From the IMG/VR virus record IMGVR_UViG_3300029862_000313: 15,072 bases of DNA. One strand, given 5' to 3'. Position 1 is the stretch's first letter. Every line of letters begins with the position of its first letter. The DNA comes from a virus (Duplodnaviria; Heunggongvirae; Uroviricota; Caudoviricetes). The notes under the pieces were generated by a model, which saw only the letters and a program-made list of their open reading frames with translations, did not search any database and was not told where the DNA came from. Below, piece after piece: positions 1 to 15,072 of this stretch. The position numbers and the translations under genes are program-made.

Positions 1-1228
<1,228 letters not shown>

Positions 1229-2883: not shown

Positions 2884-3378
2884 TCATTTCCAATTGCAAG
2901 ACTGTGAAATTTTTTCCACAACCTTATCAATCTCAGACAAGTCAAACTCAACTACTTGCATAGTTGATCCATAAGGTTCAAACCCAAAAATAGCTTTTTT
3001 ATGCTTAGCCAAGGTCTTTATAAATTGTATTGGTTGTGGAGCAAATGCAGAATCACCGCCTTCCCCACCTCCCCAAGCACTCTTGACCGGCTTTCCGCCA
3101 TCTAACCGCACTGTAATTCTTGGGTTGTCCGAACCCATATAATCATTGAATGATAAATAGGCATCTGTTTTGTTATCACTACAACGCAACACCAGTGAAG
3201 TTGCACGATCAGTACCTGCTTTGTTATATGAATCTGGTGATAAATTAAGAGCCACAAAGTCAGTCTGGTCAGTCATTTTATTTATCTCAGACTTTGTTAT
3301 CCACGACCCTAACTTCTCTACACCAGCATTTGCAGTAAACGAGGCACTTATGACAAAGGCTATAATAAATTTTCTCAT
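2884..3378 (-). CDS. Secreted protein of unknown function, 164 aa, N-terminal signal peptide (cargo gene in AT-rich segment)
   Basis: Signal peptide MRKFIIAFVISASFTANA followed by a hydrophilic mature domain with a Gly-rich patch (WGGGEGG). Low-GC gene in low-GC flanks with its own terminator. No family recognised. Confidence 0.6.
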   Translation of the reverse strand: MRKFIIAFVISASFTANAGVEKLGSWITKSEINKMTDQTDFVALNLSPDSYNKAGTDRATSLVLRCSDNKTDAYLSFNDYMGSDNPRITVRLDGGKPVKSAWGGGEGGDSAFAPQPIQFIKTLAKHKKAIFGFEPYGSTMQVVEFDLSEIDKVVEKISQSCNWK

Positions 3379-6352: not shown

Positions 6353-7042
6353 ATGAAAACAACACTCTCAGAAAGACTTAAAGAAGCCAGATTAGCGCGA
6401 GGCCTTACACAAAAGGCGCTTGGGGATTTGGTCGGGGTTAGCCAGGCTGCTATTCAGAAAATCGAAACAGGGAAAGCTAACCAAACAACTAAAATCGTGG
6501 AGATCGCGAACGCTTTGGGTGTGCGCGCAGAATGGTTATCTTCTGGCGTTGGAAATATGTCAGACAGTACAGTGCAACCAATACAATCAACTGTCAGCCA
6601 TTCCAAATACTTCAAAATTGACGTTCTTGATATAGAAGTCAGTGCCGGGCCAGGTGTAATCAACCGTGAGTTTGTAGAAGTTCTACGCTCGGTTGAGTAC
6701 TCGTTTGACGATGCTCGTCACATGTTCGATGGCAGGAAGGCGGAAAATATCCGCATCATTAACGTGCGAGGTGACAGCATGTCAGGGACGATCGAACCAG
6801 GTGACCTGCTGTTCGTTGATATCACTGTTAAATCTTTCGACGGTGATGGCATCTATGCGTTTCTGTACGACGACACTGCCCATGTAAAACGTCTTCAAAT
6901 GATGAAGGATAAGCTGCTGGTTATCTCTGATAACAAGAGCTACTCGCCGTGGGACCCGATCGAGAAAGACGAGATGAACCGGGTGTTCATATTCGGTAAG
7001 GTCATTGGAAGCATGCCGCAGACGTACAGGAAGCATGGTTAA
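6353..7042 (+). CDS. cI: CI-type prophage repressor, N-terminal HTH plus C-terminal S24 (LexA-like) autopeptidase domain; not lambda immunity
   Basis: 229 aa. HTH (LTQKALGDLVGVSQAAIQKIETG), candidate Ala-Gly cleavage site (EVSAGPG), Ser nucleophile in GDSMSGTIEPGD and Lys in HVKRL. Unlike remembered lambda cI. Confidence 0.85.
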   Translation: MKTTLSERLKEARLARGLTQKALGDLVGVSQAAIQKIETGKANQTTKIVEIANALGVRAEWLSSGVGNMSDSTVQPIQSTVSHSKYFKIDVLDIEVSAGPGVINREFVEVLRSVEYSFDDARHMFDGRKAENIRIINVRGDSMSGTIEPGDLLFVDITVKSFDGDGIYAFLYDDTAHVKRLQMMKDKLLVISDNKSYSPWDPIEKDEMNRVFIFGKVIGSMPQTYRKHG

Positions 7043-7271: not shown

Positions 7272-7652
7272 ATGAGAAAAATCCTAATCGCTGCCATGAT
7301 GGCATCTGTATTGGCTGGGTGTGCTTCTTCAGGCAACCAGCAACTCAAAAATGAAACTGAAATTAGTGTCCAGTCTAAACTTCAGGAAGGTAAAACAACC
7401 AAGAATGAGGTTAAATCTTACTTTGGTTCTCCTGATGCTGTTTCATATACTGACAGTGGAAACGAGATCTGGAAGTACGCCTTTGCAAAAGTAAAAGTTA
7501 ATGGCACCACTTTTATTCCATTCTATGGATTATTCCATAATGGAACGAACGGTACGAAAAAAGAACTTACTATTCTTTTTAACGATGACACGATTAAGAA
7601 ATACACAATGTCAGAAACCCAAATAAACTCGAAATCAGGTTGGGCTGACTGA
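7272..7652 (+). CDS. Lipoprotein of unknown function, 126 aa, in the rexAB/sieB-equivalent position downstream of cI
   Basis: Signal peptide with lipobox LAGC (Cys18). Preceded by a 229-bp AT-rich spacer and followed by a hairpin terminator. Low GC relative to neighbouring phage genes. Confidence 0.7.
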   Translation: MRKILIAAMMASVLAGCASSGNQQLKNETEISVQSKLQEGKTTKNEVKSYFGSPDAVSYTDSGNEIWKYAFAKVKVNGTTFIPFYGLFHNGTNGTKKELTILFNDDTIKKYTMSETQINSKSGWAD

Positions 7653-10814: not shown

Positions 10815-10912
10815 ACATGAAAAGCAAAATCATCAGGGAGCTACAGGCTCCTTTTTTATTATTCGCATTCACCCTCAAGCGTATTAACCAACAATTCAGG
10901 GATTAATGAAAG

Positions 10913-11134
10913 ATGGCAGACATAATTGATTCAGCATCAGAAATTGAAGAATTACAGCGCAACACAGCAATAAAAATGCGCCGCCTGAACCACCAGGCTA
11001 TATCTGCCACTCATTGTTGTGAGTGTGGCGATCCGATAGATGAACGAAGACGACTGGCCGTTCAGGGTTGTCGGACTTGTGCCAGTTGCCAGCAAGATCT
11101 GGAGCTTATCAGTAAACAGAGAGGTTCGACGTGA
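10913..11134 (+). CDS. TraR/DksA-family C4 zinc-finger protein (lambda orf73-like), a likely RNA polymerase-binding modulator
   Basis: 73 aa with CxxC...CxxC (CCECGDP ... CRTCASC) and the N-terminal MADIIDSASEIEELQRN characteristic of TraR-like proteins. Lambda position between orf61 and ea22. Confidence 0.8.
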   Translation: MADIIDSASEIEELQRNTAIKMRRLNHQAISATHCCECGDPIDERRRLAVQGCRTCASCQQDLELISKQRGST

Positions 11135-11538
11135 GCGAAATTAACTCTCAGGCACTGCGTGAAGCGGCAGAGAAAGCCGGTGAAGATAAGTGGCAGGCTA
11201 AAAAAATAAATGGTGATTTTTTCGTTATTCGTCACGGTAGTTATACAAGACAGCATGGCTACACATCGTATCAACCCATTGCGGAGATTGATTGTAAGCC
11301 AGTCCGGGATTTTGTTGCCAAGGCTAATCCGGCTACCGTGCTGGAATTACTGGATGAACTGGAAGCAGCAAAAAAGCGCATTGCAGAACTGGAAGCGCGG
11401 GAAATACTGCTCCCGGAACGTAGCAGCATGCTTCATCGAACAGATTTTCACGATGATTACCAAACGGTAATGGCATACAAAGTTTCTGAAGTCATCGATG
11501 CAATCCGCGCTACTGGCATTCGCATCAAAGGAGAGTGA
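11131..11538 (+). CDS. ea22: Ea22-like protein, mosaic (lambda-like N- and C-termini, different central region; 135 aa versus about 182 aa in lambda)
   Basis: N-terminus MSEINSQALREAAE and C-terminus GIRIKGE match remembered lambda Ea22; the middle, including a coiled-coil-like LELLDELEAAKKRIAELEARE, does not. Confidence 0.75.
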   Translation: MSEINSQALREAAEKAGEDKWQAKKINGDFFVIRHGSYTRQHGYTSYQPIAEIDCKPVRDFVAKANPATVLELLDELEAAKKRIAELEAREILLPERSSMLHRTDFHDDYQTVMAYKVSEVIDAIRATGIRIKGE

Positions 11539-11539
11539 G

Positions 11540-12295
11540 ATGATTCACTACCACGGTGGGCCTATTACTCCTGATACGTGCGCAATGAGAGCATGGAAAG
11601 GGCGACATGCGTTTATCAGTTTTGCGCATTCAGGCCAGATCAATCTCGCGGCTGAATACTGTCAGTCGTTCGCGCTGGACAACGGTGCATTCACCGCCTG
11701 GAAAGCAGCTGGCAAAAACAAAATCGACTGGAGCGATTACTACGAGTTTGTTGCTCGCTGGAAGAATCACCCAAGATTCGATTTTGCCATTATCCCGGAT
11801 GTTATTGATGGCGGAGAGGAGGAAAATGATGCGCTTCTGAATGAGTGGCCTCACGGAAAACTAGCTGGCGTTCCAGTGTGGCACATGAATGAAAGTGACG
11901 AGCGATTTATTCATTTGTGCAATGAGTTTCCGCGAGTGGCTATCGGTAGTTGTGGCGACTATGACGTAAAGCGCCCAACTCTTGCGGTAGCCAGAATGAA
12001 AGACCTGATTCGTCACATTGTTGATGGGCATGGTCAGCTGGTTACGAAACTACATGGATTGCGCATGTTAAATCCGCTGATATTCACAAAATTACCCTTA
12101 GCCAGCGCAGATAGTACGAACGTCGCTCGAAACATCGGTATTGATAAAGCCTGGTCTGGGGCTTATGCACCTGCAAGTAAAGAGACACGCGCAGCATTAA
12201 TGGTAGAACGGATTGAGGCACACAATAGCCCTGGTTCTCTTGCGTATTGTGAACAACGCGACCGCTTTGAAATGCAATTGCAACTAGCAGTTTAA
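11540..12295 (+). CDS. Candidate TGT-superfamily (DpdA-like) base-exchange enzyme, 251 aa; not present in lambda
   Basis: Start ATG at 11540, 1 nt after the ea22 stop, with AAGGAG 8 nt upstream. By eye, ordered motifs resemble remembered bacterial Tgt motifs: LDNGAF vs TDSGGFQ, AIIPDVIDG vs IVMIFDEC, RVAIGSCGD vs AVGGLAVGE, LHGLRMLNP vs LMGVGKP, ASADSTNVARN vs DMFDCVMPTRNARN. No Zn-binding Cys cluster. Assignment is a hypothesis, not a search result. Confidence 0.4.
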   Translation: MIHYHGGPITPDTCAMRAWKGRHAFISFAHSGQINLAAEYCQSFALDNGAFTAWKAAGKNKIDWSDYYEFVARWKNHPRFDFAIIPDVIDGGEEENDALLNEWPHGKLAGVPVWHMNESDERFIHLCNEFPRVAIGSCGDYDVKRPTLAVARMKDLIRHIVDGHGQLVTKLHGLRMLNPLIFTKLPLASADSTNVARNIGIDKAWSGAYAPASKETRAALMVERIEAHNSPGSLAYCEQRDRFEMQLQLAV

Positions 12296-12305
12296 GGACT
12301 AACAA

Positions 12306-12881
12306 ATGACCACTATTACCAAAGAACGTATTGAATTGTTCATTAAAAATCCGCTTGAAAACGGGCTTACTCGTGGCGAACAAATGGAACTGGCACGAAT
12401 TGCACTGGCATCACTGGGAGCAGAACCTGTAAGCCAAACTTACAACTTGCCAGAATTAATCGAAGGCATGGAGGTTTCCATTGATGTAAGCACTTGTGAT
12501 GCGGATTTAGGTAATCGCTATTTCGGTACCGTCACCGAGGCGTTAGAACTTGATACTGCCAAGAATGGTTACATCCTCCTGGTTCAGGACGCAGAGCCAA
12601 ACTTCGATATAAATGGCAATTCTCCGGTAACTCCGGATGGTTGGGTTATAGTGCCGAAGAAACTAACCGCTGAGAACGGCGCTAAGGGTGTGCTATCCGG
12701 TGAATTTTCAGAAACTACGTTTATAAGCTGCCCGGAATGCTTTGGTGATGATGATTGCGAAACTTGTGACGGCAGCGGAAGAATCGAAATCAAGGTTCCA
12801 GTCAGTTGGACAACTATCAAAACTATTTGGGCTAAAGGGTGTGAGTACTTTTCAATAGTAGCACCGCAGCAAGATGGGTGA
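12306..12881 (+). CDS. Hypothetical protein with C-terminal DnaJ-type zinc ribbon (CPEC...CETCDGSG), 191 aa; gene immediately downstream of the TGT-like gene
   Basis: ATG 10 nt after the upstream stop with an AGGA RBS. Acidic central region; CxxC-N7-CxxCxGxG motif near the C-terminus. No lambda counterpart recognised. Confidence 0.55.
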   Translation: MTTITKERIELFIKNPLENGLTRGEQMELARIALASLGAEPVSQTYNLPELIEGMEVSIDVSTCDADLGNRYFGTVTEALELDTAKNGYILLVQDAEPNFDINGNSPVTPDGWVIVPKKLTAENGAKGVLSGEFSETTFISCPECFGDDDCETCDGSGRIEIKVPVSWTTIKTIWAKGCEYFSIVAPQQDG

Positions 12882-12939
12882 TGAAAACAAGTATTTATAA
12901 CTTAAAAGCATTAAAAAATCGCTTATAGATCAAAAGAAA

Positions 12940-12980
12940 TCTACGTCAAATATTACTATATTTCAATGTGTTATAATTAC
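12940..12980 (+). promoter_or_regulatory. Candidate sigma70 promoter with extended -10 (TGTTATAAT) in an AT-rich spacer
   Basis: TGnTATAAT at 12969..12977, with TCAAAT (12945..12950) as a possible -35. Precedes the 80-aa ORF starting at 13008. Confidence 0.45.
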
Positions 12981-13007
12981 CCCGTCCATAAAATGGGGGG
13001 ACACAAA

Positions 13008-13250
13008 ATGTTCAAACGCTGCATCACCAAGTGTGGAAGCACACCTGACATCCAAGCTTTTATTAATGAAGATGGTAAGCTTGTTGTTGAGAGGAGTGGT
13101 CCTTTTATTAGCAAACAACTTATCATTACCTCTCCAGCGGAGATGGCCGGGGAATGGATAGTTTCTGAACCAGAGGAGTTGCACATCCCGCTTCCTTATG
13201 GCCCTCAGGGACTGATTTATAACCGTTATGTTCAGAAGGAGGCGGGTTGA
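13008..13250 (+). CDS. Hypothetical small protein, 80 aa, with its own promoter and RBS
   Basis: GGGGGG RBS 7 nt before ATG at 13008; sequence MFKRCITKCGSTPDIQAFINEDGKLVVERSGPF.... The track ORF begins further upstream at 12966 with no RBS. The overlapping 152-aa - strand ORF has implausible composition. Confidence 0.4.
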   Translation: MFKRCITKCGSTPDIQAFINEDGKLVVERSGPFISKQLIITSPAEMAGEWIVSEPEELHIPLPYGPQGLIYNRYVQKEAG

Positions 13251-13528
13251 CAATGTCAGGCATAACATCGCCGAGAAATCGAAAGAAAAACAGAACAAGG
13301 TAAACGTTGACCTTGCAGCATCAGGCATGGAGTACAGAGAGCGCCTTAACATACCTGTTATCACTGAGCAGGTATCATGAGAGCAACCTGAGCACTCACG
13401 CGAGTATTTCATGGAGCGCATCAGATACTATCGCGAGCAGTCGTTAAACATGCCCAAGGGAAGCAACCCATGGTATATCGATATGGATGAACAGAACGCC
13501 AAGAAGTAAACGCAATTTGAACGAATGC

Positions 13529-13558
13529 GAACCCGCCGAGTGCGGGTTTTCTTTTATC
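13529..13558 (+). terminator. Rho-independent terminator
   Basis: AACCCGC (13531..13537) pairs with GCGGGTT (13543..13549), followed by TTCTTTTAT. Confidence 0.6.
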
Positions 13559-13598
13559 TGAACTCGCTACGGCGAGTTTTGTTTTATGGCGATGATAA

Positions 13599-13766
13599 AT
13601 GCACTTCCGAGTTACAGGTGAATGGAATGGAGAACCATTCAACAGAGTTATCGAAGCCGAGAACATCAGCGACTGCTATAACCACTGGATGCTGTGGGCG
13701 CAGATAGCACATGCAGACGTAACCAATATTCGAATTGAAGAACTGAAAGAACACCAAGCCGCCTGA
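13599..13766 (+). CDS. Small ORF, 55 aa, in the lambda orf55 position just upstream of xis
   Basis: My translation is MHFRVTGEWNGEPFNRVIEAENISDCYNHWMLWAQIAHADVTNIRIEELKEHQAA*. Below the 60-aa track cutoff. Weak RBS. Confidence 0.4.
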   Translation: MHFRVTGEWNGEPFNRVIEAENISDCYNHWMLWAQIAHADVTNIRIEELKEHQAA

Positions 13767-13780
13767 TGGCGGTTTTTTCT
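13756..13780 (+). terminator. Hairpin plus T-run terminator immediately upstream of xis
   Basis: GCCGCC (13758..13763) pairs with GGCGG (13768..13772), followed by TTTTTTCTT. Confidence 0.55.
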
Positions 13781-13805: not shown

Positions 13806-14024
13806 ATGTACTTGACACTTCAGGAGTGGAACGCTCGCCAGCGACGCCCAAGAAGCCTTGAAACAATTCGTCGATGGGTGCGCGAATGCAGGATATTCCC
13901 TCCTCCGGTTAAGGATGGAAGAGAATATCTGTTCCACGAATCAGCGGTAAAGGTTGACTTAAATCGACCAGTAACAGGTAGCCTTTTGAAGAGGATCAGA
14001 AATGGGAAGAAGGCGAAGTCATGA
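13806..14024 (+). CDS. xis: Excisionase Xis, lambda-type
   Basis: 72 aa, near-identical to remembered lambda Xis (MYLTLQEWNARQRRPRSLETIRRWVRECRIFPPPVKDGREYLFHESAVKVDL...). Its 3' end overlaps the int start. Confidence 0.95.
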   Translation: MYLTLQEWNARQRRPRSLETIRRWVRECRIFPPPVKDGREYLFHESAVKVDLNRPVTGSLLKRIRNGKKAKS

Positions 14025-15072
14025 GCGCCGGGATTTACCCCCTAACCTTTATATAAGAAACAATGGATATTACTGCTACAGGGACCCAAGGACGGGTAAA
14101 GAGTTTGGATTAGGCCGAGACAGGCGAATCGCAATCACTGAAGCTATACAGGCCAACATTGAGTTATTTTCAGGACACAAACACAAGCCTCTGACAGCGA
14201 GAATCAACAGTGATAATTCCGTTACGTTACATTCATGGCTTGATCGCTACGAAAAAATCCTGGCCAGCAGAGGAATCAAGCAGAAGACACTCATAAATTA
14301 CATGAGCAAAATTAAAGCAATAAGGAGGGGTCTGCCTGATGCTCCACTTGAAGACATCACCACAAAAGAAATTGCGGCAATGCTCAATGGATACATAGAC
14401 GAGGGCAAGGCGGCGTCAGCCAAGTTAATCAGATCAACACTGAGCGATGCATTCCGAGAGGCAATAGCTGAAGGCCATATAACAACAAACCCTGTCGCTG
14501 CCACTCGCGCAGCAAAATCAGAGGTAAGGAGATCAAGACTTACGGCTGACGAATACCTGAAAATTTATCAAGCAGCAGAATCATCACCATGTTGGCTCAG
14601 ACTTGCAATGGAACTGGCTGTTGTTACCGGGCAACGAGTTGGTGATTTATGCGAAATGAAGTGGTCTGATATCGTAGATGGATATCTTTATGTCGAGCAA
14701 AGCAAAACAGGCGTAAAAATTGCCATCCCAACAGCATTGCATGTTGATGCTCTCGGAATATCAATGAAGGAAACACTTGATAAATGCAAAGAGATTCTTG
14801 GCGGAGAAACCATAATTGCATCTACTCGTCGCGAACCGCTTTCATCCGGCACAGTATCAAGGTATTTTATGCGCGCACGAAAAGCATCAGGTCTTTCCTT
14901 CGAAGGGGATCCGCCTACCTTTCACGAGTTGCGCAGTTTGTCTGCAAGACTCTATGAGAAGCAGATAAGCGATAAGTTTGCTCAACATCTTCTCGGGCAT
15001 AAGTCGGACACCATGGCATCACAGTATCGTGATGACAGAGGCAGGGAGTGGGACAAAATTGAAATCAAATAA
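14002..15072 (+). CDS. int: Tyrosine integrase Int, lambda-type (attP/attL expected just beyond the window end)
   Basis: 356 aa, near-identical to remembered lambda Int (MGRRRSHERRDLPPNLYIRNNGYYCYRDPRTGKEFGLGRDRRIAITEAIQ... HELRSLSARLYEKQISDKFAQHLLGHKSDTMASQYRDDRGREWDKIEIK). The window ends at its stop codon. Confidence 0.97.
   Translation: MGRRRSHERRDLPPNLYIRNNGYYCYRDPRTGKEFGLGRDRRIAITEAIQANIELFSGHKHKPLTARINSDNSVTLHSWLDRYEKILASRGIKQKTLINYMSKIKAIRRGLPDAPLEDITTKEIAAMLNGYIDEGKAASAKLIRSTLSDAFREAIAEGHITTNPVAATRAAKSEVRRSRLTADEYLKIYQAAESSPCWLRLAMELAVVTGQRVGDLCEMKWSDIVDGYLYVEQSKTGVKIAIPTALHVDALGISMKETLDKCKEILGGETIIASTRREPLSSGTVSRYFMRARKASGLSFEGDPPTFHELRSLSARLYEKQISDKFAQHLLGHKSDTMASQYRDDRGREWDKIEIK

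Follow-up and report, generated by a model that had tools for sequence, protein, structure and literature searches.

What does a temperate phage do with a lone enzyme of the kind that exchanges guanine for a 7-deazaguanine, when none of the genes that make such a base lie beside it? The question is raised by a 15,072-nt stretch of virus DNA (IMG/VR record IMGVR_UViG_3300029862_000313; hereafter the window, meaning this whole stretch), which its annotation places in the early region of an E. coli lambdoid prophage. Two tightly spaced open reading frames (ORFs) on the + strand, gene A (11540..12295, 251 residues) and gene B (12306..12881, 191 residues), lie there between an ea22-like gene and xis. 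An initial annotation, whose placement and spacing of the pair we verified, had read them as a two-gene cargo cassette of a tRNA-guanine transglycosylase (TGT)- or DpdA-like enzyme and a zinc-ribbon protein. We consider it probable, taking the explanation as a whole, that gene A is a short, zinc-less, solo (singleton) DpdA that would insert a host-made base, and that gene B is a mere neighbour. Singleton DpdAs of this type are already on record for enterobacterial phages of the lambdoid, P22-like and P2-like kinds.

Family and predicted active site of gene A

Gene A matches PHROG 887 (phrog_887, 'queuine tRNA-ribosyltransferase') with an E-value of 2.9e-103. A tblastn search of 50,697 phage records found homologs at falling levels of identity, from an Stx1a-converting phage (98%) through the Salmonella phages BTP1 and SPN3UB (92.4%, across all 251 residues), SfI (68%) and Klebsiella phages (68-70% together with SfI) and Vibrio phages (61%), to SEN1 (38%), HK106 and 7-11 (both 36%; the match to the 7-11 DpdA has an E-value of 2e-25). 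The series extends to Pseudomonas phage Iggy, whose annotated DpdA is 26.5% identical (E 1e-6) and whose DNA contains about 16.5% dPreQ0. Comparing a profile of 48 homologs with Iggy DpdA in hhalign gave a probability of 98.9% and an E-value of 1.4e-17, with LDNGAF paired to LDSGAF and SADST to SCDSS. The family of A comprises 1527 representative clusters at 50% identity. Homolog clusters number more than 7800 for A and more than 7900 for B, and both are real genes rather than chance ORFs. One 1719-bp record labelled 'Staphylococcus phage SA 1298 Kay' (OR850331.1) holds a 92%-identical copy of the enterobacterial gene A, and is probably mislabelled or contaminated.

The predicted structure points the same way. 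A first AlphaFold2 (AF2) run with 34 close homologs reached a predicted local distance difference test score (pLDDT) of 61.5, and its model was not used. The final run, on a 137-sequence alignment enriched with distant homologs by profile search, reached a pLDDT of 90.3 and a predicted template modelling score (pTM) of 0.87. The model is an eight-fold beta/alpha barrel of eight strand-helix units, as in TGT, with the conserved residues all at or just past the C-termini of strands. Foldseek comparison of this model with the PDB returned generic TIM barrels only. In BFVD, a library of predicted viral structures, the model matched phage proteins named 'queuine tRNA-ribosyltransferase', with E-values as low as 2e-10; Vibrio phage nt-1 and Cellulophaga phage phiST were among the sources of the matches. 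DpdA2 and DpdA3 were defined in these two phages, and the matched entries may be those proteins. Taken by itself, the predicted fold would be modest evidence for A as a DpdA; together with the chain of sequence matches to validated DpdAs, it is convincing. As the initial annotation proposed, the protein is very probably of TGT/DpdA type, a member of the phage DpdA family within the TGT superfamily.

The two Asp-containing motifs first noticed by eye are both present, FALDNGAF around D47 and ASADSTNVARN around D191. The E. coli Tgt translation contains LTDSGGFQ and GIDMFDCVMPTRNARN (as well as CDCYTC), so the parallels between A and Tgt are real. D47 of the LDNGAF motif (codon 11678..11680, + strand) is the predicted general acid/base, the counterpart of D95 in bacterial DpdA (bDpdA) and of D89 in E. 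coli Tgt. It is invariant in our 48- and 137-sequence alignments, pairs with LDSGAF of Iggy DpdA and lies at the C-terminal end of strand 43-47 in the predicted model. The D47-N-G-A-F51 motif is conserved, with an aromatic residue four positions after the putative general acid/base, as in bDpdA (D95/F99) and Tgt (DSGGF). D191 of the SADSTN motif (codon 12110..12112, + strand) is the predicted nucleophile, the counterpart of bDpdA D256 and E. coli Tgt D264. It too is invariant, pairs with SCDSS of Iggy DpdA and lies on strand 189-192, the last barrel strand of the model. A crystal study of bacterial DpdA assigned Asp95 as the general acid/base, with Phe99 four residues on, Asp130 to base recognition and Asp256 as the nucleophile (PMC10164549). 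The D47-F51 spacing and the predicted place of D191 on the last strand appear to fit this scheme.

Two other residues may contribute to catalysis. D87 of the IIPDVIDG motif (codon 11798..11800, + strand), invariant or nearly so within the subfamily in both alignments, is a candidate base-recognition Asp (compare bDpdA D130 and Tgt D143). H172 of the KLHGLRM motif (codon 12053..12055, + strand) is an invariant His on strand 7; judged from spacing only, it is possibly the hydrogen-bond partner of the nucleophile, by analogy with Cap10 H226, for which an H226/D248 pair has been described. Across the 48 homologs, which are 31-55% identical, only D47, H172, S189, D191 and S192 are invariant, with D87 and H115 nearly so. 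The catalytic residues are kept in all of more than 130 diverse homologs.

A direct reading also bears out the reported lack of a zinc-binding subdomain: the five Cys residues of A are scattered (positions 14, 41, 127, 138 and 237) and form no structural zinc motif (CxCxxC...H). Since the zinc site is missing from Iggy DpdA (no Cys cluster on direct reading) and from Cap10 as well, its absence is no argument against activity of A.

PHROG and RefSeq phage annotations carry the name 'queuine tRNA-ribosyltransferase', which would make A a tRNA queuine/guanine transglycosylase that remodels Q34 of host tRNA during infection. Its fold and its catalytic Asp residues are indeed common to Tgt. However, the database name has been transferred by homology only, and neither A nor any of the 48 family members matches Pfam TGT (PF01702) at E <= 1. 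A is also without the zinc subdomain and some 125 residues of Tgt, the tRNA-binding parts are missing, and its nearest characterised relatives work on DNA. We therefore give a tRNA role very little credence.

Gene B and the slot downstream of gene A

Could gene B provide what gene A lacks? In a true two-gene module, the zinc ribbon of B would supply in trans the missing zinc- or nucleic acid-binding subdomain of A, and the two proteins would form a complex. The arrangement in the window is compatible with this: only 10 nt separate the stop codon of A (TAA) from the ATG of B, with a Shine-Dalgarno sequence (AAGGA) overlapping the A stop, and B has a CxxC...CxxCxGxG zinc knuckle. A full-length B body occurs in 47 of 5426 complete E. 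coli genomes, 30 of which have A directly upstream. The 30 A+B regions are 99.8-99.9% identical, however, so this count can reflect the clonal spread of one prophage type.

Counted from the side of A, which occurs in 201-204 of the same genomes (3.7%), the association is much looser. A is followed by B in only 30 of about 201 carriers, leaving about 171 of 201 without B after A; in 101 genomes the next gene is instead of EaA type, with a PF04447 dATP/dGTP pyrophosphohydrolase domain. Pieces of B are found in 668 genomes, and its body also occurs without A, fused in many prophages to N-termini of Ea22, DUF550 or DUF551 type. No B-like gene follows A in BTP1, SPN3UB, SfI, HK106, SEN1, Caulobacter phage DMCA or three metagenomic phages, and the validated Iggy DpdA is equally devoid of a Cys cluster. 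The two-gene cassette of the initial annotation does not survive these comparisons, and we regard a functional module of A and B as very unlikely.

What comes after A varies among phages. It is an EaA/DUF550 gene in BTP1, a domain-less Eaa gene in SPN3UB, small ORFs in SfI, a lambdap35-like ORF in HK106 and unannotated ORFs in the three metagenomic phages. In the P2-like phage SEN1, a replication gene lies immediately downstream of the A homolog (L009:2980-3810). Some P2-like phages carry a DNA methyltransferase in the slot upstream of the replication gene.

In most enterobacterial settings the next gene after A is an EaA-type PF04447 gene, as at L015:3360-4064, L016:3360-4064, L017:3267-3926 and L002:4267-5232 (BTP1 eaA). 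A dGTP-hydrolysing enzyme beside a guanine-exchanging one is suggestive, and we considered a functional link between DpdA and PF04447. This was rejected, as 2796 genomes contain the PF04447 gene, or parts of it, whether or not A is present. Because the domain is frequent without A (in about half of E. coli) and no PF04447 neighbour of A was found outside enterics, we take it as a feature of the neighbourhood only.

What, then, is gene B? The initial annotation gave it a zinc ribbon and no obvious family. The ribbon stands: direct reading finds two CxxCxGxG-type motifs like those of the DnaJ Cys-rich region (CPECFGDD...CETCDGSG, 12729..12779, + strand; C142-PEC-FGDD and C151-ETC-DGSG), which would be enough for one predicted zinc centre. 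The lack of a family does not stand: B has a match to phrog_60 (E 1.4e-41) and is one of the mosaic Ea22/EaA/DUF551 proteins known from the exo-xis ('ea') region of lambdoid phages. It is built of an N-terminal adaptor (residues 1-38), a middle module (residues 40-102), a GNSPVTPDGW linker and a C-terminal one-zinc knuckle domain. The N-terminus is common to several other phrogs. The first 38 residues (MTTITKER...ARIALASL) and the linker (GNSPVxPDGW) recur in EaA-type proteins, and they are all that B has in common with the PF04447+DUF551 protein of L017; B itself has neither the PF04447 nor the DUF551 domain. The remaining body (EPVSQTYNL...APQQDG) is the part found on the various N-termini above.

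RefSeq calls B a 'molecular chaperone DnaJ'. DnaJ/Hsp40 proteins combine a J domain with four CxxCxGxG motifs, whereas B has two Cys motifs only, and no J domain or DnaJ Pfam match was found in it, so the name is an unjustified over-call. The zinc region resembles the DnaJ Cys-rich domain (1exk) with an E-value of 7.3 and Anti-TRAP (PF15777) with one of 0.68, both weak matches. B is a mosaic accessory protein of the Ea22/EaA/DUF551 set, unrelated to A and an interchangeable occupant of the next operon slot.

In the Stx1a-converting phage Stx1a_EH2115 (LC744180.1), the region corresponding to window positions 11131-12426 is 99.5% identical. It covers the Ea22-like gene, A and the opening 120 nt of the gene that follows, after which the sequences diverge. 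The N-terminal module of the downstream gene therefore appears to act as a recombination junction. In E. coli ERP001, the copy of A (L018:2501-3256) has an internal stop and is annotated as a pseudogene, so that gene A is occasionally lost.

Singleton DpdA phages and the probable function of gene A

A base-exchange gene had been thought unusual in a lambdoid early region, and here the initial annotation was mistaken. Hutinet et al. (2019; PMC6884629) grouped 182 viruses according to the 7-deazaguanine genes that they carry, and DpdA is the sole entry in their Supplementary Data 1 for HK106 (YP_007151699), SfI, 7-11, SE131, SEN1, SPN3UB (YP_007011024), BTP1 (SIU02687) and PEAT2. All eight phages match gene A by tblastn, the lambdoid, P22-like and P2-like HK106, SfI, SPN3UB, BTP1 and SEN1 among them. 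Gene A is a known kind, effectively a known gene, the idea and the family having been in the literature since 2019. Our literature search found no work after 2019 on the BTP1 or lambdoid singleton DpdAs.

As stated in the initial annotation, annotation scans find no preQ0-pathway genes (folE, queD, queE, queC) anywhere in the window, and A would therefore depend on 7-deazaguanine precursors made by the host. Enterobacterial hosts make preQ0 via the queCDEF pathway. When expressed alone in E. coli, the DpdA of phage 9g yielded 790 dPreQ0 per 10^6 nt in plasmid DNA (PMC6884629), and DpdA2 of nt-1 yielded 926 per 10^6 nt in the wild type but none once queD had been deleted (PMC10516641). Host-made preQ0 is thus enough for a solo enzyme. 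Insertion of host-made preQ0 into DNA by DpdA or DpdA2 alone in E. coli has been shown for relatives only, and for A itself we infer the activity, the base used, the target motif and the phenotype.

On balance, we favour an exchange of guanine for host-made preQ0 or a close derivative. Upon induction or infection, A would be transcribed with the recombination genes from PL. D191 would attack C1' of a target deoxyguanosine in double-stranded phage DNA and, with D47 as general acid/base, guanine would leave, following the double-displacement chemistry of TGT. A 7-deazaguanine base from the host queuosine pathway, most probably preQ0 and possibly preQ1 or a derivative, would then take its place. 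The outcome would be sparse marks at specific motifs, which would weaken restriction, or another defence that targets DNA, in the host infected next.

In Caulobacter phage DMCA, a homolog of A with 39% identity (L004:5705-6726) begins right at the stop codon of a short gene resembling QueD/PTPS (PF01242, 22.5 bits, barely over the cut-off). This is the only direct tie we saw between the short A subfamily and a preQ0-pathway gene; no preQ0 genes were found within 8 kb of the A homologs in the three metagenomic loci.

Several observations weigh against preQ0 insertion by A. Pfam, NCBIfam and PADLOC scans of A gave no match, and three sequence or profile searches of PDB chains gave noise only. 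The alignment column of D87 is a Ser in Iggy DpdA, with an Asp three residues later (8-sequence alignment), and D87 is therefore no more than a candidate counterpart of bDpdA D130. The best solved-structure match of the A model is Cap10 (PDB 9NTN), which leads bDpdA by less than one Z unit, and the substrate of Cap10 is a protein-linked deazaguanine, not DNA. The network of Hutinet et al. singles out a gamma-proteobacterial singleton cluster whose function may have diverged (PMC6884629). For enterobacterial singletons, the sole datum is indirect, namely the DNA of phage 7-11 (36% identity), which has 50 dADG per 10^6 nt (PMC6884629), a trace amounting to 0.02% of G. The singleton of mycobacteriophage Orion gave zero modification (PMC6884629).

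The library negatives count for little here. A PDB search with Iggy DpdA is likewise empty, the Iggy, 7-11, HK106 and SEN1 DpdAs are also without a PF01702 match, and empty results of this sort are therefore usual for phage DpdAs and do not speak against membership. Comparing the A-family profile with the single E. coli Tgt sequence in hhalign gave a probability of 0.6%.

The remaining points bear on whether A is a TGT-fold singleton that no longer puts preQ0 into DNA. Such a protein could instead act on host tRNA, excise bases as a glycosylase, or bind or transfer a protein-linked 7-deazaguanine as Cap10 does, and in the last case it could interfere with type IV CBASS or QatABCD-type immunity. 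Divergence of the singleton clusters is a possibility that Hutinet et al. themselves raise, phage 7-11 shows no more than trace modification, and singletons persist in mycobacteriophages whose hosts make no preQ0, with Orion DNA unmodified. The enterobacterial hosts of A do make preQ0, however, and its relatives at the sequence level are phage DpdAs with proven DNA activity. Neither a Cap9/QueC-like gene nor a CD-NTase lies near A, PADLOC is empty for all 48 family members, and the lead of Cap10 over bDpdA is narrow. Overall, we judge a diverged function unlikely. A broader form of this proposal makes the zinc-less singletons of temperate phages a diverged, non-preQ0-DNA branch near Cap10, disarming type IV CBASS or QatABCD, for instance, or using another base or substrate. 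If true, it would explain both their persistence with preQ0-less hosts and the trace or absent DNA modification, but we find it quite improbable.

The same trace in 7-11 and absence in Orion might mean that A is an idle passenger, moved about by mosaic recombination and with no consequential modification in E. coli. Its presence in just 3.7% of complete E. coli genomes and the copy with an internal stop (L018) would agree with this. However, gene A is under strong purifying selection: the ratio of nonsynonymous to synonymous substitution rates (dN/dS) between the window copy and the BTP1 ortholog, that is, between E. coli and Salmonella, is 0.022, with dS saturated. The invariance of the catalytic residues and the 1527 clusters of the family also speak for a maintained function, and an idle passenger seems to us an improbable description.

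If A does insert such a base, these temperate phages would hold a cheap, one-gene epigenetic shield of host-made 7-deazaguanines. Such a shield could influence which hosts they infect and how toxin genes spread, and it could mislead analyses that rely on restriction or nanopore reads. Gene A marks about 4% of complete E. coli genomes; an Stx1a-converting phage is among its carriers, as are prophages of O157:H16, O121 and avian pathogenic E. coli (APEC) O78 strains. The E. coli lambdoid copy is a convenient, although not unique, test object for singleton biochemistry. In practical terms, the pair should not be called a cassette, B is misnamed DnaJ, and the annotation of A can be upgraded: the 'hypothetical protein' of E. 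coli RefSeq could become a DpdA-family DNA transglycosylase-like protein.

The early operon and comparison with known systems

Genes A and B lie within the early-left operon transcribed from PL. On the + strand, the reading order starts from cI (6353-7042) and runs through kil, gam, bet, exo, DUF1317 and DUF1382 to a TraR/DksA-like gene (starting at 10913) and the Ead/Ea22-like gene (11131..11538; PF13935 at E 2.6e-17, phrog_1667 at E 1.7e-56). The ATG of A is one base past the TGA of the Ead/Ea22-like gene, with AAAGGAGAG just upstream. An in-frame alternative ATG at 11498 would extend A to 265 residues; the RefSeq annotation uses the identical 251-residue frame. From the terminator-like hairpin at 10835 to the one at 13529 we saw no promoter-like site on the + strand, and A and B do not stand out from their flanks in GC content. 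A and B are thus ordinary members of the PL transcript and not a self-contained insert; the idea of a moron with its own promoter and terminator was rejected on these same grounds. In all phage and metagenomic loci compared, homologs of A are found among early replication or recombination genes.

Directly after B comes an 85-nt AT-rich gap (GC about 0.37), followed by an ORF of 80-94 residues (within 12882-13250; phrog_9613, E 3e-51) with GGGGGG upstream of it. A 50-residue ORF (13228-13380) is a remnant that corresponds to the N-terminal half of DNA polymerase III theta (HOT-like). In NZ_CP051001, which holds a related prophage, the annotation marks this locus as a theta pseudogene, and an IS66 element separates the theta remnant from xis. 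Terminator-like hairpins follow (13529-13549, 13560-13579 and 13756-13775), and then xis (13806-14024) and int (14002-15072). The region is 99.9% identical in E. coli O157:H16, where it adjoins ybhC, the lambda attachment site.

The opposite (-) strand carries cro, cII, O and P, together with a two-ORF insertion sequence (1241-2454; transposase phrog_157 and phrog_151) beyond gene P in the nin region, and a VasI-like protein (2884-3378; PF11319, E 2.9e-6). A UPF0167 protein (PF03691; 1-588, + strand) lies at the edge of the window. After cI, where gene N would be expected, a 126-residue ORF (7272-7652, + strand) has a weak BamE-like match.

How does gene A compare with better-known systems? 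Tgt acts on tRNA and has the CxCxxC...H zinc site and the PF01702 domain, whereas A is 125 residues shorter. Bacterial DpdA (PDB 7UI4) is a 413-residue protein with a large Ins8 insertion and a structural zinc site, against the 251 residues of A, and the bacterial Dpd restriction-modification system requires the DpdB ATPase; no dpd genes are found in the window and PADLOC gives no match. Cap10 of type IV CBASS (PDB 9NTN) combines high fold similarity with only 9% identity to A. It operates with the QueC-like Cap9 and with a CD-NTase that has an N-terminal Gly-rich tail and carries an N-terminal deazaguanine; the window has neither, again with no PADLOC match.

The DpdAs of phages are nearer. 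The validated DpdA1 enzymes (Iggy and the E. coli phages 9g and CAjan) have a homologous core with the LDxGAF and S-x-D-S motifs of A. They are DNA preQ0 insertases and can draw on host preQ0 when expressed alone. Unlike A, with which they share about 26% identity, they are encoded beside folE-queD-queE-queC and modify 16-32% of G; A stands alone and is about 60 residues shorter. The DpdA of Salmonella phage 7-11 resembles A in being short, zinc-less and solo (36% identity), but 7-11 is a virulent phage of 90 kb rather than a lambdoid prophage, and its modification is dADG, at 0.02% of G, which would call for an amidation step. The singleton DpdAs of BTP1 and SPN3UB, which fall in group 3 ('DpdA only') of Hutinet et al., are 92.4% identical to A and equal to it in length, in phages that likewise have no preQ0 genes. 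They differ in host (Salmonella rather than E. coli) and in the next gene, which is EaA instead of B and has PF04447 in the BTP1 copy only. In BTP1, as in the window, the DpdA gene comes after an Ea22-like gene in the early operon.

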